Shown here piece after piece: positions 2,213 through 33,382 of a DNA stretch of 64,000 bases. Below the pieces are notes generated by a model. The model was not told the origin of the DNA. It ran no database searches and saw only the letters and a program-made list of their open reading frames with translations. The position numbers and the translations under genes were made by a program. The stretch is from Eubacteriales bacterium. GTDB taxonomy: Bacteria > Bacillota > Clostridia > Oscillospirales > CAG-272. Location of the stretch: positions 12,782-76,781 of the forward strand of contig JBGVEW010000022.1 in NCBI GenBank assembly GCA_045120465.1. The letters are read 5' to 3'. Every line of letters starts with the position of its first letter. Position 1 is the stretch's first letter.

Positions 2213-3169
2213 ATGATCTTGACCGATTATTTCCGCTCAGCGCATGACGTAACGTGGGATTTTGCAATAGCCTCCGGCGTTCAGCACGGCGTTATCCGTC
2301 TGCCCGAGGACGGCAAATTTGACTACGCTGACCGCTCCCATTGGAATACCCTTGTAAAAAGATTCACCGATTTCGGCATCACGCCCGTTGCGCTTGAGCC
2401 CATGCCAAACGAGCTTCACGATCACATCAAGGCAGGCGACGACAAGCGCGATGAAAGCATCGAAAGGGTGATCTCCATGTTCCCGCACATGAGGGCACAC
2501 GGGATCGATACCATCTGCTTTAACTGGATGGCGCACATCGGCTGGCTGCGCACCTCGTCGGATTTCCCCGAGCGCGGCGGTGCCAGAGTGACCGAATTCA
2601 ACATGGCGGATTTCAAGCCCACAAGCGCAAGGATCACGGCGGACGAGCTTTGGGCAAACTACGAATATTTCGTAAAGGCGGTCGTTCCCGAGGCAGAAAA
2701 ATACGGGATCAAGCTGGGACTTCACCCGGATGACCCTCCCGTTCCCCGTCTTGGCGACGTGGAGCGCATCATGATCTCTAAGGAAAACATCAAGCGCGCG
2801 GTTTACGGGATCGTAAGCAGCGAAAGCCTTGGCATTACGATGTGTCAGGCAAATTACTTTATCATGGGCGAGGATCTGGAAAAGACCATCGCGGAATTTG
2901 CCGACCGCATCTTTATGGTGCATTTCCGCAACACCACGGGCGTTCCTGAGCATTTCCGTGAAACCTATCACGACAACGGGGATATTGACATGGCGGCCTT
3001 GATGAAGACCTACGTCAAAAACGGTGTCAACGTCCCCATTCGCGTCGATCACGTCCCCACCATGGCGGGCGAGATCTCCACGCTCCCCGGCTACGACGCG
3101 CTGGGAAGACTTTTTGCCATCGGTTACCTCAAGGGCATTCTTGATGCCTGCGGTGCCAACAACAGCTAA
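2213..3169 (+). CDS. uxuA: mannonate dehydratase family protein
   Basis: 318 codons. The TICFNWM and LHPDDPP motifs resemble UxuA. It sits in a uxaC-SDR context. Confidence 0.65.
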   Translation: MILTDYFRSAHDVTWDFAIASGVQHGVIRLPEDGKFDYADRSHWNTLVKRFTDFGITPVALEPMPNELHDHIKAGDDKRDESIERVISMFPHMRAHGIDTICFNWMAHIGWLRTSSDFPERGGARVTEFNMADFKPTSARITADELWANYEYFVKAVVPEAEKYGIKLGLHPDDPPVPRLGDVERIMISKENIKRAVYGIVSSESLGITMCQANYFIMGEDLEKTIAEFADRIFMVHFRNTTGVPEHFRETYHDNGDIDMAALMKTYVKNGVNVPIRVDHVPTMAGEISTLPGYDALGRLFAIGYLKGILDACGANNS

Positions 3170-3187
3170 TAAAGGAGGCATGGCTTT

Positions 3188-4681
3188 ATGATTCGAATTC
3201 AAGACCGTGTGATCAAGGAACAAAAGAATTTCTGGAGCGCGGCGCTCTTTCATCCCACCGATGCCGTAGAGGATCCGTGGGGCAGAAGAATCCTTGACCG
3301 TATCGCCGCAGACAAGGCGATCCAAACCGTTCGTGTTTACTCCATGTTTGAGGATATCGTTTATCTTGACGAGAACGGAAGGATTTGCTACGATTTTCGC
3401 CTGAGCGATCTTCGCCTTGACTACCTCACCTCCTGCGGCTTCAAGCTTCTCGTCGCCTACGCCGGCATGCCCGACTGCATCGCAAAAACAACGGCGAACA
3501 AGACCAGCGTCTCCAAAAACAAAACGCGCTACAAGGGCAAGATGTGGAACACCTCCGTGCCGCGCGACTATGCCGTTTGGGAGGAGCTTTGCTACGAATA
3601 TACCAAGCACAACATCGAGCGCTACGGCGAGGACGTTGTTGCAAAATGGCAGCTCCAATGCTTTAACGAATCCGACGTAGCCGCATTCTTTATGGGCGAT
3701 ACACCGGAGGATCTGTGGGAGGTGCGATGCGAGGAGTACTGCAAGCTGTACGAGGCATATGAGAAAGGCATCAGACGCGCCTCGGAAAAAATGACGATCG
3801 GCGGCCCCGCGCTCGCACACAGACAGGATTTTCTCGGCGCCTTTCTGGATTACGTCAAGGAAAATCATCTGCGTCTTGATTTTATTTCGCTTCACAATTA
3901 CGGCGCAACACCCGCGGAGCTGAACGACGGCTCGCGCAGGATCACCGTTGCCAACAACGTCAAGCGCCACAGAAAGTACGCGCAAAACATTGCCGCGCAC
4001 GGCTTTGAAGGCACCGAGATCGTCATCGACGAATGGGGCTTTGCAACGGGCGGCTTTTTGAACAGGGAGGAATGCCCTGCCCTGATGTTCCGCGAGACCG
4101 AGAAATTCGCCTCCTATTACGTCAAGCTGATCTCCGAGTTTATACAGAACGATTTTCACCTCTCGACCCTTATGATCTGCCTCTCGGGTCAGCACGAAAT
4201 GGTAGAGGATTTTTCGGGCTTCCGCAATTTCTTCACGCTCAACTTCATTGCAAAGCCCATCTACAACGCGCACCTTTTGGCATCACGCCTTAAGGAGGGG
4301 CTTCTTGCGGCAGAGGTGAGCGACCAAAGCCTGTTTACCGTTCCTACCAAAAACGAAAACGGCGAATACGCAGTCCTGTTGACCTACGCCTCGGAATACT
4401 TCGAGGCGGATATCCCCGACAAAGTGGAAGCGCTGACCTTTGACGAGGATATTACGGGCAAGGAAGTAACGGTTTGGCGCATCGACAAGAGCACGGCAAA
4501 TCCTTATGGCACGTGGATGCGTATGGGATGCCCCGAGATCGAAGGTGACGTGCTAAAGCTGCTTCTTGACGAGGGCCAGATCAAGCCCGTTTCGGTAGAG
4601 ATCGCAACGAGCAATTCCGTAATGCTTCCGCTCTCCCCCAACGCAACCTGTCTCGTTGAGGTGCGGAACGCGACAAATTGA
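3188..4681 (+). CDS. glycoside hydrolase, clan GH-A (GH39-like)
   Basis: 497 codons with TIM-barrel-type motifs CFNESD and VIDEWG. The family was assigned by eye only. Confidence 0.45.
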   Translation: MIRIQDRVIKEQKNFWSAALFHPTDAVEDPWGRRILDRIAADKAIQTVRVYSMFEDIVYLDENGRICYDFRLSDLRLDYLTSCGFKLLVAYAGMPDCIAKTTANKTSVSKNKTRYKGKMWNTSVPRDYAVWEELCYEYTKHNIERYGEDVVAKWQLQCFNESDVAAFFMGDTPEDLWEVRCEEYCKLYEAYEKGIRRASEKMTIGGPALAHRQDFLGAFLDYVKENHLRLDFISLHNYGATPAELNDGSRRITVANNVKRHRKYAQNIAAHGFEGTEIVIDEWGFATGGFLNREECPALMFRETEKFASYYVKLISEFIQNDFHLSTLMICLSGQHEMVEDFSGFRNFFTLNFIAKPIYNAHLLASRLKEGLLAAEVSDQSLFTVPTKNENGEYAVLLTYASEYFEADIPDKVEALTFDEDITGKEVTVWRIDKSTANPYGTWMRMGCPEIEGDVLKLLLDEGQIKPVSVEIATSNSVMLPLSPNATCLVEVRNATN

Positions 4682-7028: not shown

Positions 7029-8438
7029 ATGAAAAAGATCGCTGTTGTACACGGGGAGTGGAGTTCGGATGTAATGCGTCGTGCGTTTGCTTTGCTTAGC
7101 GAATTGATACTGGACTATACCTTTGAATATCCGGTTGGTCTCGATTGTGATAAGGCGGAAAACCTTGACGTTCTTTTGGAAAATTATCATCCTATTTACA
7201 TAGGAACAAAGCAAAATAACAGTTATATAAGAAGGAATTCGGATTTTTGTCTGCAACATCCCGAAGAATATGGAATAAACGTTTCAAACGGAAAGATAAT
7301 CGTCGAAGGATTTGATGACAGAGGTGTACTTTACGGTTGTATTGATCTTTATAATAAGTATTTTATCACACAGGAATATCCGCATAATGACAAATATGTG
7401 TTGCCCATAGAAAAATGGAGATTTGCTGATTATCGCTATTCGTCATATCCTTCCGTAAAAGAGCGTGGGATATGGACGTGGGGACATGTTATATATGATT
7501 GGCGCGGTTTTATTGACAATATGGTCAAGCTTAAAATGAACACGTTAACTGTCTGGAATGATTACCCACCCGTAAATGCGCGCGAGATGGTTGATTACGC
7601 GCACTCTTGCGGAATAAAAGTCATTTGGGGATTCCCTTGGCTTTGGGATACAAACTGCAAAAAGATACCGTTTGACAGGCTGTGTGAGTATAGCGAGGGG
7701 ATATTCCGAGGATATGATGAAGAATATCGAGATTTGCCGATTGATGGTATTTATTTTCAAACCGCTACCGAATTTGGCGAAGAAACCGTTGGCGGTATCA
7801 CGGTTGCCGAGGCTGTGACCGCATTCGTAAATCACACAGCAGCCTATTTTTATGAGAAATACCCCAATCTTGAGATACAGTTTGGGCTTCATGCCGAATG
7901 TGTTAAAAACAAGCTTGAATACATTGAAAAAGTTGATAAACGTATCAAGATCGTTTGGGAGAATTGCGGTTCATTTCCTTTTGCGTATATGCCGGATAGA
8001 CTGGAGGATTTCACCGAAACCGTGGATTTTGTAAAGCGAATCACGACGCTTCGGGGAGAAAATGAGCGTTTTGGGGCTGTTACTAAGGGGCTTACTAAGC
8101 TTGATTGGTCGGCTTTTGAACATCTTGAAGGTGCGATATGGACAGGAGTAAGCTCTAAGTTGATGAAAGAAAATCGCATTATTCGCAAACGCAAGATATG
8201 GCGCTATTTGCAAGCATACTGGTTAACAAATTCCGACAAGGCACTCGAGATGGTTCGAATCATGGCAAATCATACCCGCGGGAATACCACTATCACCGCA
8301 CTTGTTGAAGACGGAATGTTTGAGGAAAATATTTATTTTCCTGTTGCCCTGTTTTCAGAAATGTTATGGAATGCCGATGGCGATATAAAAAGCATAATAA
8401 ACGAGGTCGCTTTGCGTTCATACGTAGAGTTTGCATGA
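7029..8438 (+). CDS. hypothetical glycoside-hydrolase-like TIM-barrel protein
   Basis: 469 codons after an AGGAGGAG SD. The GFDDRGVLYG N-domain motif and RGIWTWGH / MNTLTVW barrel-like motifs are present. The gene is visibly AT-richer than its neighbours. Confidence 0.55.
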   Translation: MKKIAVVHGEWSSDVMRRAFALLSELILDYTFEYPVGLDCDKAENLDVLLENYHPIYIGTKQNNSYIRRNSDFCLQHPEEYGINVSNGKIIVEGFDDRGVLYGCIDLYNKYFITQEYPHNDKYVLPIEKWRFADYRYSSYPSVKERGIWTWGHVIYDWRGFIDNMVKLKMNTLTVWNDYPPVNAREMVDYAHSCGIKVIWGFPWLWDTNCKKIPFDRLCEYSEGIFRGYDEEYRDLPIDGIYFQTATEFGEETVGGITVAEAVTAFVNHTAAYFYEKYPNLEIQFGLHAECVKNKLEYIEKVDKRIKIVWENCGSFPFAYMPDRLEDFTETVDFVKRITTLRGENERFGAVTKGLTKLDWSAFEHLEGAIWTGVSSKLMKENRIIRKRKIWRYLQAYWLTNSDKALEMVRIMANHTRGNTTITALVEDGMFEENIYFPVALFSEMLWNADGDIKSIINEVALRSYVEFA

Positions 8439-8469: not shown

Positions 8470-8677
8470 CACAGAGATGATGGGTCTGATCGGAGTCGGG
8501 GTATGACCGTTGCTGTTGCAGTTGCTATCGAAGAGGCAAGCAAGTAATCCTTGATTTATAAGGCTTTTTGAGATTTACAAGACTTCATTGGGGCTTTGTA
8601 AAACTCAAATCGCACAAAATTGAACAATAAAAAGTTGGACACATCATTTTGGAGATTTCTCCATATGATGTGTCCAA
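8470..8677 (+). repeat. R module copy A (candidate structured non-coding repeat, internally deleted) ending in H2
   Basis: It aligns with copies B, C and D from CACAGAGATGATGGG to AATCCTTG and shares the tail with copy B. Confidence 0.7.
8635..8677. repeat. H palindrome copy 2
   Basis: TTGGACACATCAT-TTTGGAGATTTCTCCAT-ATGATGTGTCCAA, with a flanking A-run and T-run. It lies between convergent genes. Confidence 0.85.
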
Positions 8678-8694
8678 TATTTTTCGTTGCTTGA

Positions 8695-8847
8695 TCAGTT
8701 ATAAAACGTTAAAAATGAACCTTTGGCATTTCTGTCGAGTCGTCCCCACCTGGAATGGTTGGCAACAGGGGCGTCGGGAGGCGCTTTGCAGGCCGTAACA
8801 CACGTCACCAACGCCAACACAACCAACAGAATAAAAAGCTTTTTCAT
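8695..8847 (-). CDS. small putative lipoprotein (50 codons)
   Basis: MKKLFILLVVLALVTCVTAC is a signal peptide with a lipobox-like VTAC. The ORF starts 3 nt after the micro-ORF stop. No clear SD. Confidence 0.3.
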   Translation of the reverse strand: MKKLFILLVVLALVTCVTACKAPPDAPVANHSRWGRLDRNAKGSFLTFYN

Positions 8848-8850
8848 AGC

Positions 8851-8982
8851 TTATTTGATGAAGGGGGTGGGGAGAAGGCTATGCTCTTCTCCCTCAAATC
8901 CGTCACTCGACGTCAGGACGTCGTCTGCACAAAGTGCAATCAACTCGACCGTTGGAATCACATATTCTTTTGTCATTCTCAT
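8851..8982 (-). CDS. acidic micro-ORF P1 (43 codons)
   Basis: A GGAGG SD lies 7 nt before the ATG, 13 nt downstream of the phosphoesterase stop. It shares the Y-x-x-P-x-[IV]-E-L...D-x-L-T-S-S motif with P2 at 18622. Confidence 0.5.
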   Translation of the reverse strand: MRMTKEYVIPTVELIALCADDVLTSSDGFEGEEHSLLPTPFIK

Positions 8983-8995
8983 ATCGATTCCTCCT

Positions 8996-11900
8996 TTACT
9001 GTGCGTTCCTGTACGCCTTGGCACTGACGCCGTAGCGATAGAGTGCTTTTGCCAGAGCCTGCATTTCCTCGTTCTGCGTAGCACCGTTGCACATTGCGTA
9101 CGCGTATGCGTTGACACTGTAGCTGATGCTTGCCACGTTCGTGCCGTCATAAAGCAGCTCGACCGTGTAAACGGTATCAAAATTGACCGCGCTGATGCCG
9201 TTGGTGCTAAGCTTATACGTGCCGTTTCCAAGGTGGATAAGATCAGAGAGCGCGTAGCTCGTTCCGTTGACCTTTACGGTCACAAGCGAGAAATCCTCAA
9301 CGTCGGCAAAGATCCTGATCACGATGCTGTTGACCGTATCAAAGCGCACGGTTGCCGACGAGAAGTGCAAGCTTGCATCGGTGTTGCCCGTCAGCGTCAT
9401 TGCGTCGCTCGCAACGGGAGTGACGGTCGAGGGGACGATCTCCTCCGTGCCGTCAAGAATTGCGCCATTGCCTGCGTAATCCTTGTAGTTCTGTGATGCT
9501 TGACCGTAAGACAGAAGATCTGCGATCAGGGTCTGCATCGCCGCATACTGTGCATCGGAAAGACCCAGCTGTGCCGCGCTCTTGGAAAGCAGATTCAAGC
9601 AGTTTTGCTTGATGCTGTAATCCTCCTGCGTTGCGTAAACCGTGTCTCCGACCAGAACCTCAGCGTCGATCAGATCCGCCATCTGCTGAGGCGCGATGCC
9701 GCCGAAGGTGAAGACGTATTCACCGTTTACGACCTTGTAATCGGTCACGGTGGTGGTCTGTCCGTTCATGGTGAAGCGGATCGCAAGATCTCCATTGTCC
9801 AGAATCGCGGGATTGACGACATTGACGTAGTAGTTAATCGCCAGATCCGCGCCGAGGTTGACAGAGGCGCCGGTGAGCTTCAAGTCTTCCGCAGGCTCCT
9901 CAACATCCCCCGTTATCGTAAAGCTATCCAGCACAAGACCGTCCGCTTGTCGAATAGTAACCACGAGGTTGTTCCCCTCTACGTCGATCACCGTATATGC
10001 CGGTTGGTATCTGTCGGGGGAGATGATCGTCATCATATTTTCTTCATTGAGTTCGGCAATACCGTCGTGGTTTGGTGCACAAGAACCGATGGTAGTGTAG
10101 ACCGTGCCGATACCCTTTTGGATCACATCGGGATTTTCCTTTGTCACGATTTGTCTGTTTTTCATCGGATAGGTTCTGGTTACGTGATGCATATGTCCGG
10201 AAAGCACGAGGTCCACTCCGTATTCCTCGATAATATCTACAAGCCATTCATTGTTATTGTTAGCGCCGCTCATATGATACGCGGGGCGGTGCGTCATCAG
10301 AATTGTCCATTTTGCATCCTGATTTGCTTGCAGATCCGCTTTTAACCATGCTCGTTGCTGCTGCATCAGCGCTTTGACGTTGTAGCGTCCCGTAGCACCG
10401 GAGTCAACCACGACAAAATGCACGTCTCCGTAATTAAAGGAATACACGGTCTCGTCGAGGTAATTTACGATCTCCGCACCTATGGGAGTTGCGTCCAGAA
10501 TCGCAGTCGTGTCGGTGTACGCCGCATCTCCGCCGTTGTTCGGGTGATTGAAGTACATATCAAAGAAATCGTGCTTGTCGTGCACACCGCCGCCGATGGT
10601 TGCAAAGTGTGGGATCTGTGTGACAATTCCGCCGAGCGACTTAAAGTACATGCCGTACTCAGCAGGAGCGTTGGTCTCCGTTATATCTCCCGTATTCAGG
10701 ATCATTGCGGGTGCGGTCTCCTTCAATGCCTGTGTGATCGCCACCTGTGAATACATATACGCCTTGGGACTGGAGCCTGTTCCTCCCCAGGTATATGCCT
10801 GATTGTCTCCAAAGGCAATAAAGGAAAAGTCGTCAACGTTTTCCTTTGCGGTGGTAAAGAAGTAGCTCTTGCTCCAATCGGTCTCCTCGTTTGTGCTATT
10901 CTTGATCCCCACCTTGTATTCGTATCGCGTGCTTGCCTTCAGCTCCGTAACGTCTGCCTTAAAGTAGGCTTCCGTATCGCTGAGCGATTCTTCTTCCTTG
11001 ATTGCATCAACGACCGACCAAGCGCTCTCGCCGACCGCACGGTACTTGATCGCCATTGCACCCTCGCCGATGAAGGATTCGAGTGCCGTCCAGGCAAACG
11101 CTCTGTCGTATCTTGCGTCGGTAAAGGAGGTTACGAGGTTGTATACGTTCGCGTCAAAGCCCTCGTAAACGGGCTCCTCGGAGAGCAGGGTATATTCATT
11201 CAACGTAACGTCTGCGTAGCTGATGCTTTCCTTCGATACGCTGTTCACGCCGTAAATTCCTACGGTAAAGTCTCTTACGGTCTCATCGATCCGCATACCG
11301 CGACGGATCGTGCCACCCTCGGGTAAGGTGACGGAGCAGAGCAACATTTTTTGTGAGGGATTGACGCGGGCATTGATGTGGTACGTTCCGTGCCCGTAGC
11401 TTCCCTTGTTCGCGCCGCCAAGCATACTCATACCGCTTTCCTTGATGGTGAGAAGCTCATAGTCACCCATCATTACCGCGGTAGCATCACCGTTGAAGGA
11501 AAGGTCACAGTCATAGATCGTTTCTTGCCCCTCGGGAACGCTCAGATCGGAGGATGCTACGAGCTCAAAGGCGTTGATCGCCGTGAATTTAAAGTTGCTG
11601 ATCTCTACCTTTCCGTCTTCACAGCGGAATACCCAGAATTTGCTGCATTCCTCATAGCTTGCGCCGGTAGGATCAACGGTGCGGGTGTATGCTCTGGAGT
11701 ATCCGTTTTCCGCGTTTGTGATCGAGGTATATATTGAGTCGGATGCCGTGGTGTTATTCCACGTCATCGTTACGGAATACGTCCCCGTACCGTAATTACT
11801 GTCAACGAGCTTTTTGCCGGAGGCAAGAATTGCTCCATCCGAGCTTCGGAACTGAGCGACGCCCGTCGTTCCGCCAAAGGTCATATTCAATTCACGCGTC

Positions 11901-12898
11901 CATGTGCTTTCGGTAATCAACGACTTGTTGTTTCCAAAGTCCGTGATATCCACGTTAAAGGAAATGCGATAGATTCCCTTGCTTTCAACGTTGGGGATAT
12001 TATCCCACCACAAGGATACCGAGTCGCCTTTTTTCATATAGAGCTTTCCGTTGTATCCGATCGGGGCTGTCGGAGTGTAATTGTACCCGTAGTTTGACGA
12101 GCTGGGAGGTGTTTGTTCAACCGTCCAGATCCCATCGCCCTCCGTCGTCAGGAAGGACTCGCCGATCTCCTCAAAGCCGGAAATGGAAAGTGCTCCGTCA
12201 GTAAAGGTGAAATTGGTGATTTCTACCGCACCGTCCTCACAGCGGAATGCCCAGAACGGGCGGCATTCCGCGTATGTCTCCGTGGTGTCATCAACGCTTT
12301 TCGTTTTTGTTGCATTGATCTCGTCGCCCTTGGTGACCGTGGTCGTTATCGTATTTGGGGAGACCGTAGTATCCCAAACGATCTTTACGGAATACGTATC
12401 CGATCCGTAGTTGCTTTCCGAAACACCGCTTCCGGACATCATAAGCTTTTTTGCGGTTGTGTGACAGCTTCGGAACTGAGCCGCATCATACCCTCCGCCC
12501 AAAAGAACGTTCAGCTCTCTTTTCCAAACGGATTCACTGATGAGGGATTTGTTGTTTCCATTGTCGGTGACATCAACGTCAAAGGAAAGCGTATACGTGC
12601 CCGTTTTCGCAACACCGGGGATCTTGCTCCAGTAAAACGCCGCGGAGTTACCCTCGGTTAAGGAAAGCTTGCCATCCGTGACTGTCGGTGCAGTCGGGTT
12701 ATACGAGGCGAAGTTGGTCAGCGACGTCTTTGGCTCTATTGCCCAAAGCCCCGAATTGAAGCTCTCCTCGTATACTACGTCGGGCTCATCGCTCGCGCTC
12801 ACTGCGCCTGCCATGATGCTGCTCACAGAAATCATTTGAACGAACATCACAAGTGTCAAGAAAACCGACAAAGCCTGTTTGATTTTTGATTTGTACAT
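8996..12898 (-). CDS. secreted multidomain metallophosphoesterase (calcineurin-like) with duplicated N-terminal jelly-roll-like domains
   Basis: ATG 12898 follows a GGAGGAAAG SD. The signal peptide is MYKSKIKQALSVFLTLVMFVQMISV. Motifs GDNQ, NTGDITE, HRPAYH and SGHMHH are present. Two paralogous ~190-aa domains share SF[DN]VD[VI]TD.GNNKSLI and FRCEDG.VEI[TS]NF. Confidence 0.75.
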   Translation of the reverse strand: MYKSKIKQALSVFLTLVMFVQMISVSSIMAGAVSASDEPDVVYEESFNSGLWAIEPKTSLTNFASYNPTAPTVTDGKLSLTEGNSAAFYWSKIPGVAKTGTYTLSFDVDVTDNGNNKSLISESVWKRELNVLLGGGYDAAQFRSCHTTAKKLMMSGSGVSESNYGSDTYSVKIVWDTTVSPNTITTTVTKGDEINATKTKSVDDTTETYAECRPFWAFRCEDGAVEITNFTFTDGALSISGFEEIGESFLTTEGDGIWTVEQTPPSSSNYGYNYTPTAPIGYNGKLYMKKGDSVSLWWDNIPNVESKGIYRISFNVDITDFGNNKSLITESTWTRELNMTFGGTTGVAQFRSSDGAILASGKKLVDSNYGTGTYSVTMTWNNTTASDSIYTSITNAENGYSRAYTRTVDPTGASYEECSKFWVFRCEDGKVEISNFKFTAINAFELVASSDLSVPEGQETIYDCDLSFNGDATAVMMGDYELLTIKESGMSMLGGANKGSYGHGTYHINARVNPSQKMLLCSVTLPEGGTIRRGMRIDETVRDFTVGIYGVNSVSKESISYADVTLNEYTLLSEEPVYEGFDANVYNLVTSFTDARYDRAFAWTALESFIGEGAMAIKYRAVGESAWSVVDAIKEEESLSDTEAYFKADVTELKASTRYEYKVGIKNSTNEETDWSKSYFFTTAKENVDDFSFIAFGDNQAYTWGGTGSSPKAYMYSQVAITQALKETAPAMILNTGDITETNAPAEYGMYFKSLGGIVTQIPHFATIGGGVHDKHDFFDMYFNHPNNGGDAAYTDTTAILDATPIGAEIVNYLDETVYSFNYGDVHFVVVDSGATGRYNVKALMQQQRAWLKADLQANQDAKWTILMTHRPAYHMSGANNNNEWLVDIIEEYGVDLVLSGHMHHVTRTYPMKNRQIVTKENPDVIQKGIGTVYTTIGSCAPNHDGIAELNEENMMTIISPDRYQPAYTVIDVEGNNLVVTIRQADGLVLDSFTITGDVEEPAEDLKLTGASVNLGADLAINYYVNVVNPAILDNGDLAIRFTMNGQTTTVTDYKVVNGEYVFTFGGIAPQQMADLIDAEVLVGDTVYATQEDYSIKQNCLNLLSKSAAQLGLSDAQYAAMQTLIADLLSYGQASQNYKDYAGNGAILDGTEEIVPSTVTPVASDAMTLTGNTDASLHFSSATVRFDTVNSIVIRIFADVEDFSLVTVKVNGTSYALSDLIHLGNGTYKLSTNGISAVNFDTVYTVELLYDGTNVASISYSVNAYAYAMCNGATQNEEMQALAKALYRYGVSAKAYRNAQ

Positions 12899-13022
12899 TG
12901 TCTTTCCTCCATTCAAAAAAGATTGTAACAACATTGTAGCACAGTTGCATTGACAAAACCTTACATCTGTGATACAATAAATTTAGGAAAACTACGATTT
13001 TTTGAAATTGGAGGATAGAAAA

Positions 13023-13835
13023 ATGAAGATTCAAACGCGCTACTCCGGATACAATTACGCCACATTCAGCGAATATTACGAAGGCAAGCACGGGTATCAG
13101 GAGCATATTCACCAGTTTCTGGAGGTCCATTGCGTTCTGGAGGGAGAGACCGTGATCACCGTTGGCGGTGCGGCGCAGGTTGCACGCGCGGGAGATCTCG
13201 TTGTAATCTTCCCTTTTCAATCGCATAGCCAATATACACCGGACTATTGCAAAATATGGGTAGGTCTGGCATCCATCTCCTATGTCAACGACCTGCTTTC
13301 CCGTGACCATTTCTGCGTTCCAGACAAAAACGTGTTCACACCCTGCCCCACAGCATTTGCCTACATCAAGGAACGTCTGCCGTCGCCTCACTGGATCAAG
13401 CGCCCCTCGTCCCTGACTAAGATTCGGTTCAGAATTACCAAGGCACTTTATTTTGTGATCCTTGACGAGTTTTTGCGTCAGGTAAAGATCACCTCCACGA
13501 GTATCAACACAACTGCGCTGACGGCGACGTATATGTACGTTAACGAGCATTATAGAGAAAGTAATCTTACATTGAAAAAGCTTGCCACCGCCATTGGATA
13601 CACGCCAAATTATCTCTCCTCCTGCCTTTCGTCGATACCGAATGCGAATTTTCGCGATATACTGAACTCGGCGAGAGTGGACCACGCAAAGAAGCAGCTC
13701 ACTTCCACAGACAAGCGGATTCTGGATATTGCATTGGAAAGCGGATTTTCCTCCGAAGCCGTCTTTTACGGTATTTTTGAAAAATTTGTGGGAATGACGC
13801 CAAGACAATACAGATTAGCAAAAAGGAATACGTGA
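13023..13835 (+). CDS. AraC family transcriptional regulator
   Basis: ATG follows a GGAGGA SD. It has a cupin-like N-terminus and a C-terminal HTH (ESGFSSEAVFYGIFEKFVGMTPRQYR). Confidence 0.85.
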   Translation: MKIQTRYSGYNYATFSEYYEGKHGYQEHIHQFLEVHCVLEGETVITVGGAAQVARAGDLVVIFPFQSHSQYTPDYCKIWVGLASISYVNDLLSRDHFCVPDKNVFTPCPTAFAYIKERLPSPHWIKRPSSLTKIRFRITKALYFVILDEFLRQVKITSTSINTTALTATYMYVNEHYRESNLTLKKLATAIGYTPNYLSSCLSSIPNANFRDILNSARVDHAKKQLTSTDKRILDIALESGFSSEAVFYGIFEKFVGMTPRQYRLAKRNT

Positions 13836-13876
13836 CTCGCGGCAAGCTATCATTTGTAATGCGAGCAACAAAAAAA

Positions 13877-13919
13877 TCGGACACATCATTTTGAGCTTTT
13901 GCTCTGGTGATGTGTCCAA
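13877..13919. repeat. H palindrome copy 3 (slightly degenerate arms)
   Basis: TCGGACACATCAT-TTTGAGCTTTTGCTCTG-GTGATGTGTCCAA, with an A-run before and a T-run after. Confidence 0.8.
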
Positions 13920-13950
13920 TATTTTTTTGTTTTCAAGGAGGATTTCCAAG

Positions 13951-14310
13951 GTGAAAAAGCTTAAAATGACTCGAGGCGTAACACTCACTTTTGAGGAGGG
14001 CTGCAACAAATATTTAGAGAATTGTCGGCAGAGAAATTTAAGGGAAGGTACTATCGGACACTACCGACAGAGCTACGTGCAATTCTATAAGTTCTTCGAC
14101 CCGAAGCTGCCTATTGAGGACATTGATGAGCAGACCTATAAGGACTACGTTTTGCATTTGAAATCGACTTTGGATAACGATGTTAGTTACATTTCAATAC
14201 TGAAAGGAACGTTATATTATGATTTATGCTTATTGCCGCGTCAGCACACAACATCAGAACGAAATATTTTCGTCTTTGTTAGTGTTACAATGGATGAAAG
14301 AGCAAAATGA
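13951..14310 (+). pseudogene. tyrosine recombinase/integrase, N-terminal fragment
   Basis: GTG follows an AAGGAGGA SD. VKKLKMTRGVTLTFEEGCNKYLENCRQRNLREGTIGHYRQSYVQFYKFF... stays integrase-like to about codon 80, then becomes unrelated sequence. Confidence 0.55.
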
Positions 14311-14389
14311 AAAAAATTTTCACACTTTTTATTATGCAAATACCTGTTTTTATAGCTTGCAAACAGGCGCGCGCTCGTATATTCCGTAA
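14219..14389 (+). pseudogene. serine recombinase (resolvase/invertase) N-terminal stub
   Basis: MIYAYCRVSTQHQN matches the Y-x-R-V-S-T-x-x-Q catalytic-serine motif. The resemblance is lost after about 14 codons. Confidence 0.35.
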
Positions 14390-14658
14390 GGCTGTACCGC
14401 AACATATATTCGCTGAAAACGGAAAGCTCCTTTATTTTTCCTTTTTTACTCTCATATCATTGACAAATGCACAAAATTACAAAAAAGGACGTTTATCCTT
14501 TCGGAAAGTACGTTTCACACCTTAAAAAGGAAGCACGCTTCATATATAATATAGACATCCCACTAAAGAAAGCGAAGGGAAAGCGTCTGCTTCCTCGCCG
14601 TTCCGCTTTGGAGCGCTTCCTTTGCGAATACGTAAACAAATCATATTTCATCGGCACA

Positions 14659-14700
14659 CAGAGCCGCCCCACTCCGATCCAAGGAGATGGGGCGGCTCTG
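14659..14700 (-). terminator. hairpin downstream of the LysR gene
   Basis: CAGAGCCGCCCCA...TGGGGCGGCTCTG forms a 13-bp stem. Confidence 0.45.
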
Positions 14701-14718
14701 CTTTCCGCCTCTTATGCG

Positions 14719-15567
14719 TCAAAAATCACAGTCGGCAAGATATTCAACGAAATCGTTCAGCTGGTCATCGAGGCTCCCCTGCTTGTAATACAGGCAAACG
14801 GAGCTGCTCAGGCGCATATCCCTGACGTCGAGATCAACCAACCCGCGCGGCGCGGGATCGAGCGCCGACTCGAGCCACAGCCCAAGTCCGACACCTGCGG
14901 CAGTGCTTTCCGTAAAGCACTGGCGGTCATTCGTTTGCAATACGATATTCGGATAAAACCCGGCGTTTTTACAGCAATCGAACAAAATGCTATTCGCCCC
15001 AAGCTCGATCTCCAGGGTAACGAATCTCTCGTTTCTCAAGTCCCGCATCGTAAGGGGCTTGCCGACAAGCGGGTGATCCGAAACCGCCTTGAAGCAAATT
15101 TGATAGTTTCCAAGCTCACGGCATCTGTATTCCGTGTAATCGTCGCAGGGCTTATCGATGATGATGTCATAATCAAAGCATTCCCGGTTGCTTGTGTCAA
15201 ACATTGCGATGAAATGCACGTTCGGATGAAGCTCTTGATATCTGAGCATCAAGCGGCTTACGTAATCCTGCATCGCAAGGATCAAAATCCGTATTTCCGT
15301 TTTCATCGGCTCTCGGTTTTTGATTTTGGAAACCGTTCGGTCAAGCTCCTCAAAAATAACGCCAAGCGAATTTTGAAGAAGCTTGCCGTTCTCATTCAAG
15401 GAAATGCGGTTGCTTTGCCTCTCAAAAAGCTTGCATCCAAGCTCCTCCTCAAGGCGCTTGATCGAAGCCGAGACGGAGGACGCGGGAATCATATACTTTT
15501 CCGCCGCCCTTGCAATGTTTTCATTTTTTGCGGTCTCATAAAAATACCGCAGCTGTAAAAGCTCCAT
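14719..15567 (-). CDS. LysR family transcriptional regulator
   Basis: ATG 15567 follows a GGGAGGGATG SD. MELLQLRYFYETAKNENIARAAEKYMIPASSVSASIKRLEEELG is a classic LysR HTH. Confidence 0.85.
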   Translation of the reverse strand: MELLQLRYFYETAKNENIARAAEKYMIPASSVSASIKRLEEELGCKLFERQSNRISLNENGKLLQNSLGVIFEELDRTVSKIKNREPMKTEIRILILAMQDYVSRLMLRYQELHPNVHFIAMFDTSNRECFDYDIIIDKPCDDYTEYRCRELGNYQICFKAVSDHPLVGKPLTMRDLRNERFVTLEIELGANSILFDCCKNAGFYPNIVLQTNDRQCFTESTAAGVGLGLWLESALDPAPRGLVDLDVRDMRLSSSVCLYYKQGSLDDQLNDFVEYLADCDF

Positions 15568-15730
15568 AATCATCCCTCCCATAGCCCTATCTCGAACGGG
15601 CTCTCTCCCATTATACCATATCCTTCGCAATATGGCAAGCATATTTTATTATATTCTTTACGTTATTACAAAAATGTGATATAATGAGTCCGTACCAATC
15701 CCCGTGAAAAAAATTATATGGAGGAAGCTT

Positions 15731-18610
15731 ATGAAAAAAAACACCCCAAAAGTCGTTTCCCTGGTACTGACCCTGGCGATGCTGATCGGCACGCTCCCGC
15801 TCGCCTTGTCGGTACGCACGGAAGCCGCATCGCAAACCACCGTCGGAGGTGTGGTCACCACCCCCGGTGCAACCGAGGTCCTGAAGTATTTCAAGGAGGA
15901 CACCGCCTTCGATATGTCCGAGAAGGTCAACGCCCCCATGACCTTTGAATTTGATCTTGCCGGATGCGGAAACATCGCCGGTGCCGTTTCCGGCGGCGTC
16001 ATCATCGGAAATTACAGCGAGGATGCATCCGCATATATCAACGTTGAGGCAGTGGACTACGGAAAGCTCATCGTTCGCGGCAAGCACACAAGCGGCTCGG
16101 AATGGAGGGCAACCTTCTATCAAAGCGAGGCCGACATCAGAACGAACGCGGTGCGTCATTATACCGTTACGGTAGGCTCCGGCTGGACAGGTGTCAGCCT
16201 GTACGTTGACGGAGCACACAAGGCAACCAGATATCCCGCCAGCATTACGCTCCCCACCGCCGCAGAATTTTCCCACCCCTTCAGAATCGGCGGCGACTAC
16301 CGCGACGGAAACACCAACTATTTCAAGGGACTGATCTATTCCGTGGCTCTCTTCAGCGACGTTCGCACCGCCGATGAGATCAAGGCGGATAAGAGCATAG
16401 CGAAAACGTGGAGCAGTGCTACGCACGGCTTGATTGCGGCGTATGACCTTACCAGAATGGGCAAGGCGGCTCTTCGAAATTACGCCGAAAGCGGAAACAG
16501 CTTGATCTATCATAACGAAAGCGGCATCCTGACGGAAAACTTCGGAACGTATGAAATCGATCAAAAATTCACCGACCATCTCGAAACGGTAGAGGCTTGG
16601 ATCTATTTTCCAAAATACTATTCCGGCAGCATCGGCGGCACGATCATCGGCAACTATCGCAGCTACAACGGTGCCCGCGCTATTTTTGAGATCTATAAGG
16701 ACGGCACGCCCCGCCTTTCCTACACCACCGAGTCCGGCACGACCGCATACCACAGATTTACCGACGTAGACGTGAGAACGGGAAGTTGGCAGCATATTGC
16801 CATTGTTCACGACGTTGCCAACAAGGAGGCACGCTGTTACGTAAACGGTGAGCTTCGCCAGACGATCTCGGGTGACACCGTTGTCGCCTACAGCGCAGAC
16901 ATCCTTGATAACAAATTTCTCATCGGCAGAGATACCGCTCTGCGTTATGCAAATGGCGACGGCGAATACTGGGAAAACAGAAAGGACCAGTATTTCAAGG
17001 GCTTTATCAAGGAGGTTCGCGCTTACTCCGACGTGAGAACCGCAGAGGAGATCGCAGAGGATTATCAGGGCTTCTTGAAATTGGCTGACAAACAGCTCCT
17101 TGCGGCATACGTGATCTCTCCGGAGGATGCATACGGCACTCTCAGAGATTTCTCCGGAAACGGCTATGACGCAGACTATCATCAGCTCCTTTGGGAAGAA
17201 GAGTACGTAAAGCCCATTGGGGATTATGCATACAGCCTTGCGGTGGTAGGTGACACACAAACCGTTACCGCCCAGAATCCAGAGCTTCTGAAAAACATCT
17301 ATCAGTGGATCCTCGAAAACAAAGAGGAAAAGAACATTCAGTACGTGATCGGACTCGGAGATATTACCGAGTACGGTGTGGACAAGGGACACGCAAACTA
17401 CGATGAAGCAAGAGCAAACGCAGAGTGGGCGGCGGCAAAGGAAGCGATCTCCCTCATGGACGGAAAGATCCCCTACTCCCTGATCCGCGGCGACGGTCAC
17501 GACGGCATTGAGCTGTTCAATCAGTATTTCGCTAACCACGCGGGATACACGCAGAACATTGCGGGATATTGCGAGGAGGGACGGATCGATAACGTTTACC
17601 ACACCTTCAAGATCGGAAGCGTTGATTATCTGCTGCTCTCCCTTGATCACGGAACCAAGGATCACGCCATCGAATGGGCAAACGAGGTGATTGCGTCGCA
17701 TCCCACGCACCGCGTGATCGTCACCACGCATCAGTATATCCGCGGCGACGGCTCGATGATCGTAACGGGAGAGTCCGGCTCCGCCTCTGCTTACGATCCC
17801 GCCAACAACAATGCAGAGGTCTTGTGGGAGGAGCTTTTGAGCAAGCATCCGAACATATTTATGGTCTTGTGCGGACACGCAAGTGCGGATGACGTCGTTG
17901 TTTCCAAGCAGATCGGTGACTACGGCAACGTGGTAACGCAGGTTCTCGTTAACCCCCAGACCATGGACGGCGAATATTACCAGGGCTCCAAGGGTATGGT
18001 AGCAATGCTCTATTTCTCCGAGGATGGAGAGAACGTGCAGGTACAGTATTACTCCACCCTGAAGGACACCTATCGCCCCACAAGCTCGTTCACGGTTTCC
18101 TACGGTGCTACCCGTATGCCCTCCTATGATAACATCGGCGAGGAGTACGTAATTGTTCAGAACGTGGAAAGCGGAATTTACTCCGTGGTGGAAAACACCT
18201 TCTTCACCTTCCTTGGCGGCTCTCTTCGCTACGGAGACGCAAAGGACGGCTTCGCCAACGTTCGTTTTGGATATCGGTTCAACGCGTCCGTGGATCTCGA
18301 GGCAACGACCTGGGGCTGGAGCTACGGTGTCGCAGGCTCGGGACATTCCAACTATACCGCGGGTGTGAATTACACGAGCGATACGAACGTCACCAATCTT
18401 GTGATCACCTCTGTCCCGGAGGCTTATTATTCTGCCGAGCTTGAAAGCCGTCTTGTCTTTGAGATCACCGTTGACGGCATCGCCTACAGGGTGTTTGATC
18501 GCGCGCGCACCAGAAGCATCCTCGGCATCGCCCAAAACATGGTGAACAACCCTACCGAACCGCAGGCGGCAAGGGACTACGCAGAAAAGATCGTCAATAC
18601 GTGTGCGTGA
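15731..18610 (+). CDS. secreted LamG-domain metallophosphoesterase
   Basis: ATG follows a GGAGGA SD and there is a signal peptide. Two LamG-like modules end in YFKGLIYSVALFSDVRTADEI and YFKGFIKEVRAYSDVRTAEEI. Phosphoesterase motifs VVGDTQ, GLGDITE and CGHASADD are present. Confidence 0.75.
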   Translation: MKKNTPKVVSLVLTLAMLIGTLPLALSVRTEAASQTTVGGVVTTPGATEVLKYFKEDTAFDMSEKVNAPMTFEFDLAGCGNIAGAVSGGVIIGNYSEDASAYINVEAVDYGKLIVRGKHTSGSEWRATFYQSEADIRTNAVRHYTVTVGSGWTGVSLYVDGAHKATRYPASITLPTAAEFSHPFRIGGDYRDGNTNYFKGLIYSVALFSDVRTADEIKADKSIAKTWSSATHGLIAAYDLTRMGKAALRNYAESGNSLIYHNESGILTENFGTYEIDQKFTDHLETVEAWIYFPKYYSGSIGGTIIGNYRSYNGARAIFEIYKDGTPRLSYTTESGTTAYHRFTDVDVRTGSWQHIAIVHDVANKEARCYVNGELRQTISGDTVVAYSADILDNKFLIGRDTALRYANGDGEYWENRKDQYFKGFIKEVRAYSDVRTAEEIAEDYQGFLKLADKQLLAAYVISPEDAYGTLRDFSGNGYDADYHQLLWEEEYVKPIGDYAYSLAVVGDTQTVTAQNPELLKNIYQWILENKEEKNIQYVIGLGDITEYGVDKGHANYDEARANAEWAAAKEAISLMDGKIPYSLIRGDGHDGIELFNQYFANHAGYTQNIAGYCEEGRIDNVYHTFKIGSVDYLLLSLDHGTKDHAIEWANEVIASHPTHRVIVTTHQYIRGDGSMIVTGESGSASAYDPANNNAEVLWEELLSKHPNIFMVLCGHASADDVVVSKQIGDYGNVVTQVLVNPQTMDGEYYQGSKGMVAMLYFSEDGENVQVQYYSTLKDTYRPTSSFTVSYGATRMPSYDNIGEEYVIVQNVESGIYSVVENTFFTFLGGSLRYGDAKDGFANVRFGYRFNASVDLEATTWGWSYGVAGSGHSNYTAGVNYTSDTNVTNLVITSVPEAYYSAELESRLVFEITVDGIAYRVFDRARTRSILGIAQNMVNNPTEPQAARDYAEKIVNTCA

Positions 18611-18621
18611 GGTAACGGTCG

Positions 18622-18768
18622 ATGAACAAAAAATACGAATCTCCCGAAATAGAGCTGCTTTGGTTGGCTCTTGACATCCTGACCTCGTCCCTGAACGCGT
18701 CGGACAATGACGTTCTCTTCGGTGACGGAAACAACGATGACAAACAGAATTGGGGACAGTACTACTGA
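18622..18768 (+). CDS. acidic micro-ORF P2 (48 codons)
   Basis: A GAGG SD lies 9 nt before the ATG, 11 nt after the phosphoesterase stop. MNKKYESPEIELLWLALDILTSS is related to P1. Confidence 0.5.
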   Translation: MNKKYESPEIELLWLALDILTSSLNASDNDVLFGDGNNDDKQNWGQYY

Positions 18769-18830: not shown

Positions 18831-19931
18831 ATGAACGAAAAAAGATTAAAAACGGGCGTTGCCTATTACGGCAACAGAATGCTCAGCCACGCGATCACGG
18901 ACATGAAGGAGATCGTCAGAGCCGATATGGACATCGTGGTACATATGCTCACGCACAACGACATCGAGCGCAGCTTTTCGGTGATGAAGGATATTTTCAA
19001 GGCAACCGAGGCGGAGGGGCTTGAGATCTGGGTAGATAACTGGGGCATCGGCGGTGCTCCCGGCGACAAGGGACATTTCCTCGCTTACCACCCCGAGGCA
19101 CACTCCTATTACGGGGACGGAATGATGCATCCGATCCAGATCTGTCTGAATGCTCCCTCCTATCGCGAGTTCGTCAAGGATTGGGTAAACAAGGTTGCGG
19201 AGCTTGGCGGAAAAACGCTGTTCTGGGACGAGCCGAACATTCCGCACGTAAGGATCGCGGGCACCGACGATTACTACTCCGCATGCACCTGCCCCACCTG
19301 CCGCAAAATGTTCGAGGAGCGCTTCGGCAAGAGAATGCCCACCGTGATGGATGAGGACGTTGCCAAGTTCAGAAACGACGTGATCATAGAATACCACAAC
19401 TTTATCACGGAGTATGCCAATTCGGTAGGCATGAGAAACGTCGTTTGCTTTATGCCCTATCAGCTTTCGGGCATGGTGGCGCAAAGCAAAAAGGATCAGC
19501 TTCTCAATTTTGACATCGATGCCATCTGCGCGATGCCTTACGTCGATAACGTCGGCACGGATCCTTATTGGTACGGCAACGATACCAACTTAAGCTTGGG
19601 CGGCGCGCCAAGCGCTTACGAGTATAACTACAACGCGACGAAGCTTTGTCTTGAAAAGGCGGGCAAGCACGGCAAGGACCATAACATCTGGATCCAGGGC
19701 TACGACGCCCCCGCAGGAAGAGAGGAAGAGATCATCGAGGCTACCGAGGCGGTCTATGATGCGGGAGCCAGAACCGTGCTCTCCTGGAGCTACCGCGCTG
19801 CCGAGTCTCACTCCTACCGCTCTGCCAACGTCGAGCGTTCCTGGCTCTGCACGGTCGAAGGGATGAAGCGCATCAAATCCATGGAGCGCGATCGGATCCT
19901 TGCCGAGAACAGAAAGAAATACATGAAGTAA
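18831..19931 (+). CDS. hypothetical protein (possible TIM-barrel sugar enzyme)
   Basis: ATG follows an AAGGAG SD and starts a 366-codon ORF. No motif that I can assign. Confidence 0.55.
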   Translation: MNEKRLKTGVAYYGNRMLSHAITDMKEIVRADMDIVVHMLTHNDIERSFSVMKDIFKATEAEGLEIWVDNWGIGGAPGDKGHFLAYHPEAHSYYGDGMMHPIQICLNAPSYREFVKDWVNKVAELGGKTLFWDEPNIPHVRIAGTDDYYSACTCPTCRKMFEERFGKRMPTVMDEDVAKFRNDVIIEYHNFITEYANSVGMRNVVCFMPYQLSGMVAQSKKDQLLNFDIDAICAMPYVDNVGTDPYWYGNDTNLSLGGAPSAYEYNYNATKLCLEKAGKHGKDHNIWIQGYDAPAGREEEIIEATEAVYDAGARTVLSWSYRAAESHSYRSANVERSWLCTVEGMKRIKSMERDRILAENRKKYMK

Positions 19932-31738: not shown

Positions 31739-31742
31739 TTGT

Positions 31743-32237: not shown

Positions 32238-32252
32238 TGGGAAAAACCCAAA

Positions 32253-32371
32253 AACCCCGCCCCGACTCCCCGTGAGTCGGGGCACCTTTTCTCTTGACAA
32301 GGCTTTAAAAATATGGTATGATAAAAATGTAATCAGCACTCCTTCCACTACAACTCCGAAGGCATCCGCAC
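32253..32371 (+). repeat. cassette-junction repeat J1 (hairpin + promoter + rhs junction)
   Basis: Contains hairpin CCCCGACT/AGTCGGGG (32260-32282), TTGACA-17 nt-TATGAT (32294-32322) and then CTACAACTCCGAAGGCATCCGCAC. It is duplicated at 35005-35128. Confidence 0.7.
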
Positions 32372-32381
32372 GAGCAAAACG

Positions 32382-33380: not shown

Positions 33381-33382
33381 CT

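Follow-up and report, generated by a model that had tools for sequence, protein, structure and literature searches.

Micropeptide genes that trail very large surface proteins in gut and rumen Clostridia

Two Related Micropeptide Genes Follow Large Secreted Proteins

Why would two genes for very large secreted proteins that are not detectably similar each be followed, within a few nucleotides, by a related gene of fewer than 50 codons? This arrangement occurs within a 64,000-nucleotide stretch of Eubacteriales bacterium DNA (contig JBGVEW010000022.1; hereafter the window), and an original prediction, made from the sequence alone, proposed that the small peptides may be inhibitor or immunity peptides for a secreted phosphodiesterase or nuclease (barstar-like), export partners, or modified-peptide precursors. 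We found that both micro-ORFs exist exactly as described, and the underlying observation is therefore confirmed. P1 (8851–8982, minus strand) encodes 43 aa, with leader-like residues 1–26 (8905–8982) ending in D-V-L-T-S-S, the tail DGFEGEEHSLLPTPFIK at 8854–8904 and a stop codon at 8851–8853. P2 (18622–18768, plus strand) encodes 48 aa, with leader-like residues 1–23 (18622–18690) ending in D-I-L-T-S-S and a tail (18691–18765) that ends in a conserved NWGQYY.

P1 starts 13 nt after the TAA (8996–8998) of a 1312-aa ORF (8996–12934, minus strand; 1300 aa from an internal ATG), and its AAGGAGG ribosome-binding site (8990–8996, minus strand) overlaps that stop codon and lies 7 nt before the ATG. 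P2 starts 11 nt after the TGA (18608–18610) of a 968-aa ORF (15704–18610, plus strand; 959 aa from the ATG at 15731), and its GAGG ribosome-binding site (18609–18612, plus strand) overlaps the TGA and lies 9 nt before the ATG. Both large proteins have N-terminal hydrophobic, signal-like segments and Metallophos hits. In the 1312-aa protein the hit (E 2.9e-12) accompanies Pur_ac_phosph_N, with Pur_ac_phosph_N and Metallophos at residues 603–917, while in the 968-aa protein it is weaker (E 2.4e-4) and accompanies two Laminin_G_3 stretches. The two proteins are not detectably similar to each other by BLASTP (best E 0.39).

The flanking genes differ between the two sites. Starting 3 nt after P1 is a 50-aa lipoprotein-like ORF (8695–8847, minus strand; MKKLFILLVVLALVTCVTAC..). 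In relatives a 115-aa Cys-rich lipoprotein holds this position, so the window copy looks truncated. A hairpin followed by a T-run (8618–8682, minus strand; RNA fold −26.2 kcal/mol) is a likely terminator closing the unit of large gene, P1 and lipoprotein, although a consensus terminator scan missed it because of its long loop. P2 is followed after 62 nt, with no terminator between them, by a 366-aa gene (18831–19931, plus strand) with a weak DUF4838 hit, and the same order and spacing are kept in contigs carrying the related peptide P0006 (P followed by four digits denotes retrieved relatives).

Several lines of evidence indicate that the resemblance of P1 and P2 is more than chance. The peptides share 12 of 24 N-terminal residues (BLASTP E 5e-6), a motif search of all six frames of the window finds only these two, and a leader profile HMM built mainly from other genomes scores them at E 2.8e-11 and 3.8e-8, with the next hit at E 5. 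Both ORFs are called in public assemblies, and spacing and synteny are conserved in relatives. Finally, pN/pS is 0.31 for P1 against P0010 and 0.27 for P2 against P0020, with synonymous sites near saturation.

A Large Unannotated Family with Conserved N-Termini and Variable Tails

Word-indexed homologue searches with P1, P2 and their alignment found only 14 close relatives, and the wider family appeared only in an exhaustive HMM search, which returned 319 cluster representatives at E≤1e-3, nearly all 32–65 aa. A degenerate DNA pattern hit at least 120 genome blocks, against roughly 13 chance hits by our information-content estimate, and all 123 matches lie in ORFs of 29–59 aa. Nearly all members are from Clostridia, and cultured carriers include Anaerotaenia torta DSM 100431, Ruminococcus flavefaciens YAD2003 and Porcipelethomonas ammoniilytica. 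In metagenome contigs, a pattern search with subfamily A (to which P1 belongs; P2 belongs to subfamily B) gave 274 hits, none of which was confirmed by tblastn. No Pfam or NCBIfam model matches the family, and literature searches for its motifs and for the gene combinations described below found no description of it.

Members share an N-terminal region of roughly 24 residues (MKK-Y-x-x-P-x-h-E-h-h … D-h-h-T-x-S, where h is hydrophobic; a further x-h follows the first block) and a mostly acidic tail that is hypervariable between subfamilies and tightly conserved within them. The D, T and S of D-h-h-T-x-S are conserved in 96–98% of members, Y in 82% and P in 81%, while no tail position exceeds 38%. 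The Thr, present in 148 of 153 members, lies three residues before the end of the conserved block. Many tails are only 6–12 residues long, they have no universally conserved modifiable residue, and no conserved acidic position is seen relative to T-x-S. The tails nevertheless appear functional, as the tail is about 95% conserved between two loci (L031 and L113; L denotes loci from other genomes) whose upstream proteins are 26% identical. In addition, tails match the C-termini of the downstream lipoproteins better within a locus than between loci (permutation P about 0.001).

The Pairing Is with C-Terminal Modules, Not with Phosphoesterases

To determine what the peptides are paired with, we recorded the upstream neighbors of family members. 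Of 88 peptides, 54 lie 70 nt or less (median 14.5) after an ORF of at least 400 aa, against a background of 24% (p 1.7e-13), and 36 of 73 lie after an ORF of at least 800 aa, against a background of 4.2% (p 4e-30). About 39% of peptides, for example P0060, are not behind a large ORF. Of 31 full-length upstream proteins, 28 have a signal-like N-terminus. The claim that the pairing, and not a simple duplication, is what is conserved is supported. A specific tie to phosphoesterases or nucleases is not supported, because none of the 57 large upstream proteins from other genomes hits Metallophos. These proteins instead carry Listeria-Bacteroides repeats, BspA-type LRRs, DUF285, GLUG, subtilase, beta-helix and CotH domains, and many are non-enzymatic repeat or adhesin-like proteins.

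What recurs is a C-terminal module. For the relatives of P1, only the last ~294 residues of the upstream protein are shared with the window protein, and this holds upstream of both P0010 and P0019. In the 1312-aa protein this type-1 module comprises residues 1019–1312 (8999–9880, minus strand) and consists of two repeats of a predicted beta-sandwich plus a helical hairpin, ending ..ALYRYGVSAKAY... It is found in 43 of 88 upstream proteins, including the window's 1312-aa protein, and 45 of 51 ORFs ending in it are followed by a family peptide, although this last figure is biased upward because the loci were chosen by the presence of a peptide. Tail type tracks the type of upstream C-terminal module, while the leader stays the same whichever module type is upstream. 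An AlphaFold2 model of the module from a single sequence was poor (pLDDT 49.7), and PDB searches gave only weak Ig-like matches (phage tail protein V C-terminal domain, E 0.013).

A Probable Peptide-Processing and Export Cassette Adjoins Some Family Members

In 16 of 120 genome blocks the peptides sit next to a cassette encoding an HprK-like protein, a PqqD-type peptide-binding domain, an S26-like peptidase, an ABC exporter and a PF14907 (NTP_transf_5) nucleotidyltransferase. Because the blocks are at most 8 kb and are not centered on the peptide, this count is a lower bound. In locus L020 the PqqD domain matches PF05402 at E 4e-12 and the nucleotidyltransferase NTP_transf_5 at E 1e-40, whereas the HprK-like match is weak (ScmC, E 2e-4, below cut-off). 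The peptidase, of ~144 aa, matches TIGR02228 (E 6e-6), with NCBIfam scores below cut-off, and an alignment of 11 cassette peptidases shows conserved GDSMMP, VLHR and GDN boxes (Ser-His type) and no N-terminal transmembrane segment. The 586-aa exporter aligns to peptidase-containing ABC models only from about model position 140 onward, so it has no C39 domain, and the leader has no GG motif, which does not fit double-glycine (class II bacteriocin-type) leader peptides. Tandem peptide arrays precede the cassette, with five copies in L030 and three in L124. In Anaerotaenia torta DSM 100431 a large protein, a peptide and the cassette are encoded together in one locus (L145).

No class-defining modifying enzyme is recognizable. 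Neither an Asn-synthetase-like lasso cyclase nor a transglutaminase-like B2 leader protease was found in any cassette locus examined or among the window proteins scanned. No cassette homologue was detected in the 64-kb window with profile HMMs or within a few kb beyond its right edge, the only part of this genome covered. A weak S26-HMM hit antisense inside the window's GH39 gene was judged spurious. In another case, one MAG carries both a cassette with peptides (L063) and, on a different contig, an orphan peptide behind a 1252-aa protein (L079).

Proposed Function of P1 and P2

The original interpretation is partly supported, in that of the three roles offered, a modified-peptide precursor fits best. 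With moderate confidence, we interpret P1 and P2 as genuine, translated genes of a family of micro-proteins built like precursors of RiPPs (ribosomally made, post-translationally processed peptides), with a conserved leader and a hypervariable core. In this view, the PqqD-type domain, as an RRE (RiPP recognition element), would bind the leader, and a cytoplasmic S26/S24-like Ser-His peptidase would remove it after T-x-S. This cleavage site is inferred only from the small-residue −3/−1 rule of S26 peptidases and by analogy with lasso leaders. The HprK-like P-loop protein and the nucleotidyltransferase may decorate the peptide, and the ABC exporter would secrete it. P1 and P2 would be orphan copies processed in trans.

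Our analysis establishes that the peptide genes are placed immediately 3′ of genes for very large secreted surface proteins with translational-coupling spacing, and that the link is to particular C-terminal modules rather than to catalytic domains. Translation, leader binding, cleavage, modification and export are inferred from sequence and gene context, as is the idea that an exported tail acts on or with the module, to which the lipoproteins whose C-termini mimic the peptide tails also point. A more speculative possibility, which we consider unlikely on present evidence, is that exported tails are cognate ligands for the C-terminal modules of the proteins with which they would be co-translated, mimicking the C-terminal tail (…ELPFVPA-type) of a co-encoded, membrane-anchored lipoprotein with a long disordered linker. 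Together these parts would form a previously unrecognized, peptide-tuned system for tethering surface proteins to the envelope of gut Clostridia, or releasing them from it, serviced by a lasso-like RRE, peptidase and ABC cassette repurposed without a cyclase.

Oscillospiraceae, Ruminococcus, Acutalibacteraceae and Lachnospiraceae are dominant gut and rumen anaerobes, and their very large secreted proteins mediate adhesion and polymer breakdown. A family of hundreds of conserved genes under 60 codons, often below ORF cut-offs, is here statistically tied to those proteins and to a lasso-like cassette that lacks a cyclase. If the peptides are processed and exported, they would represent an undescribed RRE-dependent peptide class with many copies per genome, and if the tails engage the C-terminal modules, they would reveal how these bacteria control surface display. 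The leader HMM also provides an annotation rule, and the cultured carriers are strains in which the idea can be tested.

Alternative Explanations

Two alternatives remain possible, although we regard both as doubtful. First, the unprocessed peptide could be an intracellular partner of the upstream protein, made in step with it through translational coupling and binding its C-terminal module before or during Sec export as a holdase, anti-aggregation factor or export partner, without ever being exported itself. The tight 11–13 nt spacing, the strong adjacency, the tracking of module type by tail type and the lack of a cassette in the window are consistent with this view. However, the near-invariant part of the peptide is the leader, which resembles RRE-binding leaders and does not change with module type, both tandem arrays and single copies sit next to the cassette, about 39% of members are not behind a large protein, and the upstream proteins already carry predicted Sec-type signal peptides. 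Second, the peptides could be secreted signaling or antimicrobial peptides, processed and exported by the cassette, that merely ride on strongly expressed surface-protein operons. The cassette association, the leader-core layout, the several divergent copies per genome and the hypervariable tails agree with this, but hitch-hiking does not predict the specific link to a few module types, retention of the module with the peptide while the rest of the protein changes, or the resemblance of the tails to the C-termini of co-encoded, tether-like lipoproteins.

That P1 and P2 are classical lasso peptide precursors, with the leader cut after the T-x-S region and the core cyclized by a lasso cyclase encoded elsewhere, is very unlikely. 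A lasso core would have at least ~14 aa, with a fixed Gly/Ser/Ala/Cys at position 1 and Asp/Glu at positions 7–9. The P1 tail, counted from Ser26, has Glu at positions 7 and 8, and the leader and accessory genes resemble those of lasso clusters (see below). However, besides the lack of a cyclase and B2 protease in the cassette loci examined and in the window, many tails are shorter than this, and P2 and P0006 differ by a 4-residue indel directly after T-x-S, which would shift any ring register. Least likely is the inhibitor or immunity reading that led the original prediction, since, although both window partners carry Metallophos domains and the peptides are acidic, as many nuclease inhibitors are, none of the 57 large upstream proteins from other genomes hits Metallophos and the two window enzymes, unrelated beyond the fold, are followed by peptides conserved in the same leader.

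Other readings were considered and rejected. A type IV pilin-like signal is disfavored because acidic residues break the hydrophobic segment and the register differs, and graspetide TT…EE cores because no ATP-grasp enzyme was seen. An attenuator or leader ORF does not fit a position at the 3′ end of genes and conservation at the amino-acid level, and a read-through extension of the large protein does not fit the different frame and separate ribosome-binding site.

Comparison with Known Systems

The closest known systems are Firmicute lasso-peptide clusters of the paeninodin and pseudomycoidin type, including predicted rumen clusters, with a split B1 (PqqD-type RRE), an HPr-kinase-like kinase, a PF14907 nucleotidyltransferase and an ABC exporter (PMC7533575). 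Those precursors are likewise short, with a basic start, an aromatic-x-x-P-x-h-E leader and a Thr close to the cut site (three residues before the predicted cut), and the accessory set of PqqD, HprK-like protein, NTP_transf_5 and ABC exporter is the same. An hhalign comparison of our leader profile with 29 predicted rumen lasso leaders (PMC7533575) gave a probability of 78.5% and E 1.7e-5 over 16 columns. The present family differs in having an S26/S24-like Ser-His peptidase in place of the lasso cyclase and the transglutaminase-like B2 protease, and its leader is about 4 residues longer and ends in T-x-S. Its tails are often too short for a lasso and vary in register, and its precursors are scattered behind surface-protein genes instead of being confined to the cluster.

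PqqA/PqqD and other RRE-dependent RiPP systems, including Haft's SynChlorMet cassette (ScmC HprK-like, ScmD PqqD-like), also combine a small peptide with a stand-alone PqqD-family protein, and weak ScmC and ScmD matches were found in NCBIfam and Pfam. These matches are all far below the family cut-offs, no radical-SAM/SPASM enzyme is present, and the genomic context is different. Dedicated signal peptidases of the ER/archaeal type, such as SipW with TasA/TapA in Bacillus, resemble the cassette peptidase, which matches sigpep_I_arch and SipW models, has the Ser..His..GDN boxes and belongs to a system genetically tied to large secreted or surface proteins. Here, however, the peptidase has no N-terminal membrane anchor and is paired with a PqqD domain, and the micropeptides have no hydrophobic signal sequence. 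Finally, barnase-barstar-type immunity, or small inhibitors encoded after secreted nucleases, share a small acidic ORF directly after a secreted hydrolase gene, but the partnership described here is not with a nuclease or phosphoesterase family, and the conserved part of the peptide is leader-like rather than an inhibitor fold.

Two related micro-ORFs behind secreted proteins

P1 (8851-8982, minus strand, 43 aa) and P2 (18622-18768, plus strand, 48 aa) are present and translate as described in the original prediction, whose observation of two related micro-ORFs following two large secreted phosphoesterases is upheld. P1 begins 13 nt after the TAA of a 1312-aa ORF (8996-12934), with an AAGGAGG sequence overlapping that stop codon, and P2 begins 11 nt after the TGA of a 968-aa ORF (15704-18610), with a GAGG sequence overlapping that stop codon. 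Both large proteins start with signal-like hydrophobic segments and carry calcineurin-like phosphoesterase domains in different architectures, Pur_ac_phosph_N with Metallophos in the first and two Laminin_G_3 stretches with Metallophos in the second, and BLASTP revealed no similarity between them (best E 0.39). In contrast, P1 and P2 align over their first 24 residues at 50% identity (E 5e-6). A regular expression for the shared motif matches only these two places in all six frames, and a leader HMM built mostly from peptides of other genomes scores them at E 2.8e-11 and 3.8e-8, while the next best segment in the window scores E 5.

Several lines of evidence indicate that these are real genes. 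Public assemblies call both ORFs, and word-indexed searches retrieved 14 close relatives that fall into two subfamilies, subfamily A with the tail …GF[ED]GEEHSLLPTPF… and subfamily B with the tail …DNDVxFG…NDDEQNWGQYY. The 11-nt and 13-nt spacings and the gene order are kept on 18 and 7 independent contigs, and the order is also kept in a more distant subfamily-B locus, where the upstream protein is 72% identical. The pN/pS ratio is 0.31 for P1 against the relative P0010 and 0.27 for P2 against the relative P0020, with pS of 0.64 and 0.91, such that amino-acid sequence is conserved while silent sites are nearly saturated.

A large family of leader-like micropeptides

An exhaustive HMM search of 1.84 billion cluster representatives returned 319 proteins at E<=1e-3; all but one of 150 of them are 32-77 aa, most of them 32-65 aa. 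When 153 members were anchored on the motif D-h-h-T-x-S (h = hydrophobic), D, T, and S were present in 147-150 of them, and Y (126), P (124), and E (95) sat at fixed distances upstream, whereas after the Ser no residue exceeds 38% at any position. A degenerate DNA pattern for this block, scanned over one genome per GTDB species, hit at least 120 genome blocks, against about 13 chance hits expected from an information-content estimate, and all 123 matches lie in ORFs of 29-59 aa with a start codon a few codons before the Tyr. The hosts are almost all gut or rumen Clostridia (Oscillospiraceae, Ruminococcus, Acutalibacteraceae, Lachnospiraceae, and Eubacteriales) and include the cultured strains Anaerotaenia torta DSM 100431, Ruminococcus flavefaciens YAD2003, and Porcipelethomonas ammoniilytica. 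One 4.9-kb contig binned as Prevotella (block L027, JBJFGK010000030.1) carries two family peptides and a protein with a C-terminal module typical of Clostridia (type 1, described below), which is probably a binning error. Several MAGs carry more than one copy. No Pfam or NCBIfam model matches P1, P2, or typical members, and literature searches for the motif and for the gene combination found no description of the family.

Association with C-terminal modules of large secreted proteins

To determine what the upstream genes have in common, we examined 88 genome-derived peptides with at least 1.5 kb of upstream sequence. Of these, 54 lie <=70 nt (median 14.5 nt) after a same-strand ORF of >=400 aa, whereas 24% of other genes in the same loci are that long (p 1.7e-13), and 36 of 73 follow an ORF of >=800 aa, against a background of 4.2% (p 4e-30). 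A signal-like N-terminus is seen in 28 of 31 full-length upstream proteins. The adjacency is not universal, as the member P0060 (locus L146:10001-11943) is not behind a large protein but heads an operon with conserved unannotated 397-aa and 151-aa proteins, indicating that the family has at least one other recurrent context. The domain content of the upstream proteins is diverse, including Listeria-Bacteroides repeats, BspA-type LRR, DUF285, GLUG, subtilase, beta-helix, CotH, and GH38, and none of the 57 large upstream proteins from other genomes hits Metallophos.

What recurs is the C-terminus. A "type-1" module ending …YS…Y.Y…L…ALY.Y..A..Y is shared by 43 of 88 upstream proteins, including the 1312-aa protein of the window, while smaller clusters share other endings, and the 968-aa protein clusters with the upstream protein of block L105. 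In one 8-kb block (L076), two pairs of large protein and peptide with different C-terminal module types lie in tandem (3126-3242 and 7347-7460). Within the sampled DNA, 45 of 51 ORFs that end in the type-1 module are followed by a family peptide, although this figure is biased upward because the loci were chosen by peptide. Upstream of the relatives P0010 and P0019, the protein matches the 1312-aa protein only over its last 281-294 residues, at 60-62% identity. The conserved unit is therefore module plus peptide, not phosphoesterase plus peptide. A PDB profile search weakly suggests that the beta part of the module is Ig-like (E 0.013), and a single-sequence AlphaFold model was too poor to be informative.

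A PqqD, peptidase, and exporter cassette

A distant family member, P0069, is followed by five genes, which encode a 251-aa HprK/ScmC-like protein, an 86-aa PqqD protein (PF05402, E 4e-12), a 144-aa S26-like peptidase, a 586-aa ABC exporter without a C39 domain, and a 394-aa PF14907 nucleotidyltransferase (NTase; E 1e-40). Searches with phmmer recovered the same genes in the same order in 16 of the 120 genome blocks, a lower bound because the blocks are at most 8 kb and are not centered on the peptide. The cassette often follows a large protein plus peptide, or follows tandem peptide arrays, and in blocks L030 and L124 arrays of 5 and 3 divergent family peptides (L030:2314-3223 and L124:162-1446, minus-strand coordinates) lie directly beside the HprK-like, S26-like, and NTase genes. 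The peptidase family conserves GDSMMP, VLHR, and GDN and has no N-terminal membrane anchor. No Asn-synthetase-like cyclase or transglutaminase-like protease occurs in these loci. Variant cassettes are found in Acutalibacteraceae, where block L088 (116-7586) has an S26-like/NTP_transf_5 fusion (583 aa) next to Wzz/AAA_31 (BY-kinase-like), LysM with Secretin_N-like, and T2SSE ATPase genes, and block L117 has an HprK-like gene near a LytR_cpsA_psr gene, pointing to a cell-envelope context.

The window itself has no cassette homologue by profile HMMs or Pfam, nor does the sequence a few kb beyond its right edge. A weak hit of the S26-like HMM (E 1e-4, 17 bits) at approximately 4286-4552 (minus strand) lies antisense inside the GH39 gene 3188-4681 and was judged spurious. 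However, one Ruminococcus MAG has the cassette on one contig (L063) and an orphan peptide behind a 1252-aa protein on another (L079), so that action in trans is plausible but unproven for P1 and P2.

Variable tails and neighboring genes

Tails differ widely between subfamilies but are strongly conserved within them. The tail PGTETTPKEDNDGIWDFD… is about 95% identical between two loci (L031 and L113) whose upstream proteins are 26% identical, and this tail, PGTET(T/P)…DGIWD(L/F)…, also seen in blocks L060, L066, L108, L118, L119, and L130, is about 95% conserved although the upstream giant proteins are only 25-45% identical; SVRZ01 carries three copies in one MAG. Many tails contain an acidic stretch followed by [LM]-P-x-h-P, and P1 has …EEHSLLPTPFIK.

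Directly after the peptide there is often a small signal-peptide or lipoprotein gene, the product of which has a long acidic or Pro/Thr-rich linker and a C-terminus that copies the peptide tail. In block L078, for example, the peptide ends …GELPFVPAE and the lipoprotein ends …APIELPFVPAF, and small membrane-anchored proteins or lipoproteins ending in the same motif as the tail of the neighboring peptide (…ELPFVPA…, …NMT[DE]KG) were observed in L078, L037, L058, L063, L087, L098, and L027. Similarity between tail and lipoprotein C-terminus is higher within a locus than between loci (permutation P about 0.001). P1 is likewise followed 3 nt later by a 50-aa lipoprotein-like ORF (8695-8847, minus strand) and then by a strong hairpin with a T-run (8618-8682, minus strand, -26 kcal/mol) that is a likely terminator. 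Relatives of P1 have a 115-aa Cys-rich lipoprotein in this position, so the window copy looks truncated. P2 is followed 62 nt later, with no terminator between, by a conserved 366-aa gene. Elsewhere in the window (25244-35639, plus strand), a 2164-aa RHS-repeat protein is followed by a 164-aa DUF6560-like ORF and a run of small ORFs, an arrangement that looks like a polymorphic toxin and immunity locus.

Proposed function and relationship to known systems

Together, the analyses establish that P1 and P2 are real, selected genes of a large family with a leader and a variable tail, and that this family is tied both to large secreted proteins, through their C-terminal modules, and to a PqqD, S26-like, ABC, HprK-like, and NTase cassette. 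The activities that would connect these parts are inferred from sequence and genomic context, namely that PqqD binds the leader, that the S26-like peptidase cuts after T-x-S, that the tail is exported and possibly decorated, and that the tail acts on the co-expressed surface protein. The interpretation in the original prediction is partly supported, in that a modified-peptide precursor, one of the roles it offered, is the best supported option, whereas an inhibitor or immunity peptide for the phosphoesterase is not supported. Among the alternatives, an intracellular partner of the large protein retains the most weight, followed by a signaling or antimicrobial peptide that hitch-hikes behind the large protein, and then by a true lasso precursor. 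The phosphoesterase inhibitor or immunity peptide is the weakest of these.

The closest comparison is with lasso peptide clusters. The accessory set of the cassette is the one reported around Firmicute lasso clusters (PMC7533575), and the leader profile of the family aligns to the predicted rumen lasso leaders of that study with 78.5% probability (E 1.7e-5). We regard the family as a probable RRE-dependent precursor system that is related to lasso clusters but lacks a cyclase, and that differs in its unusual genomic coupling to surface proteins.
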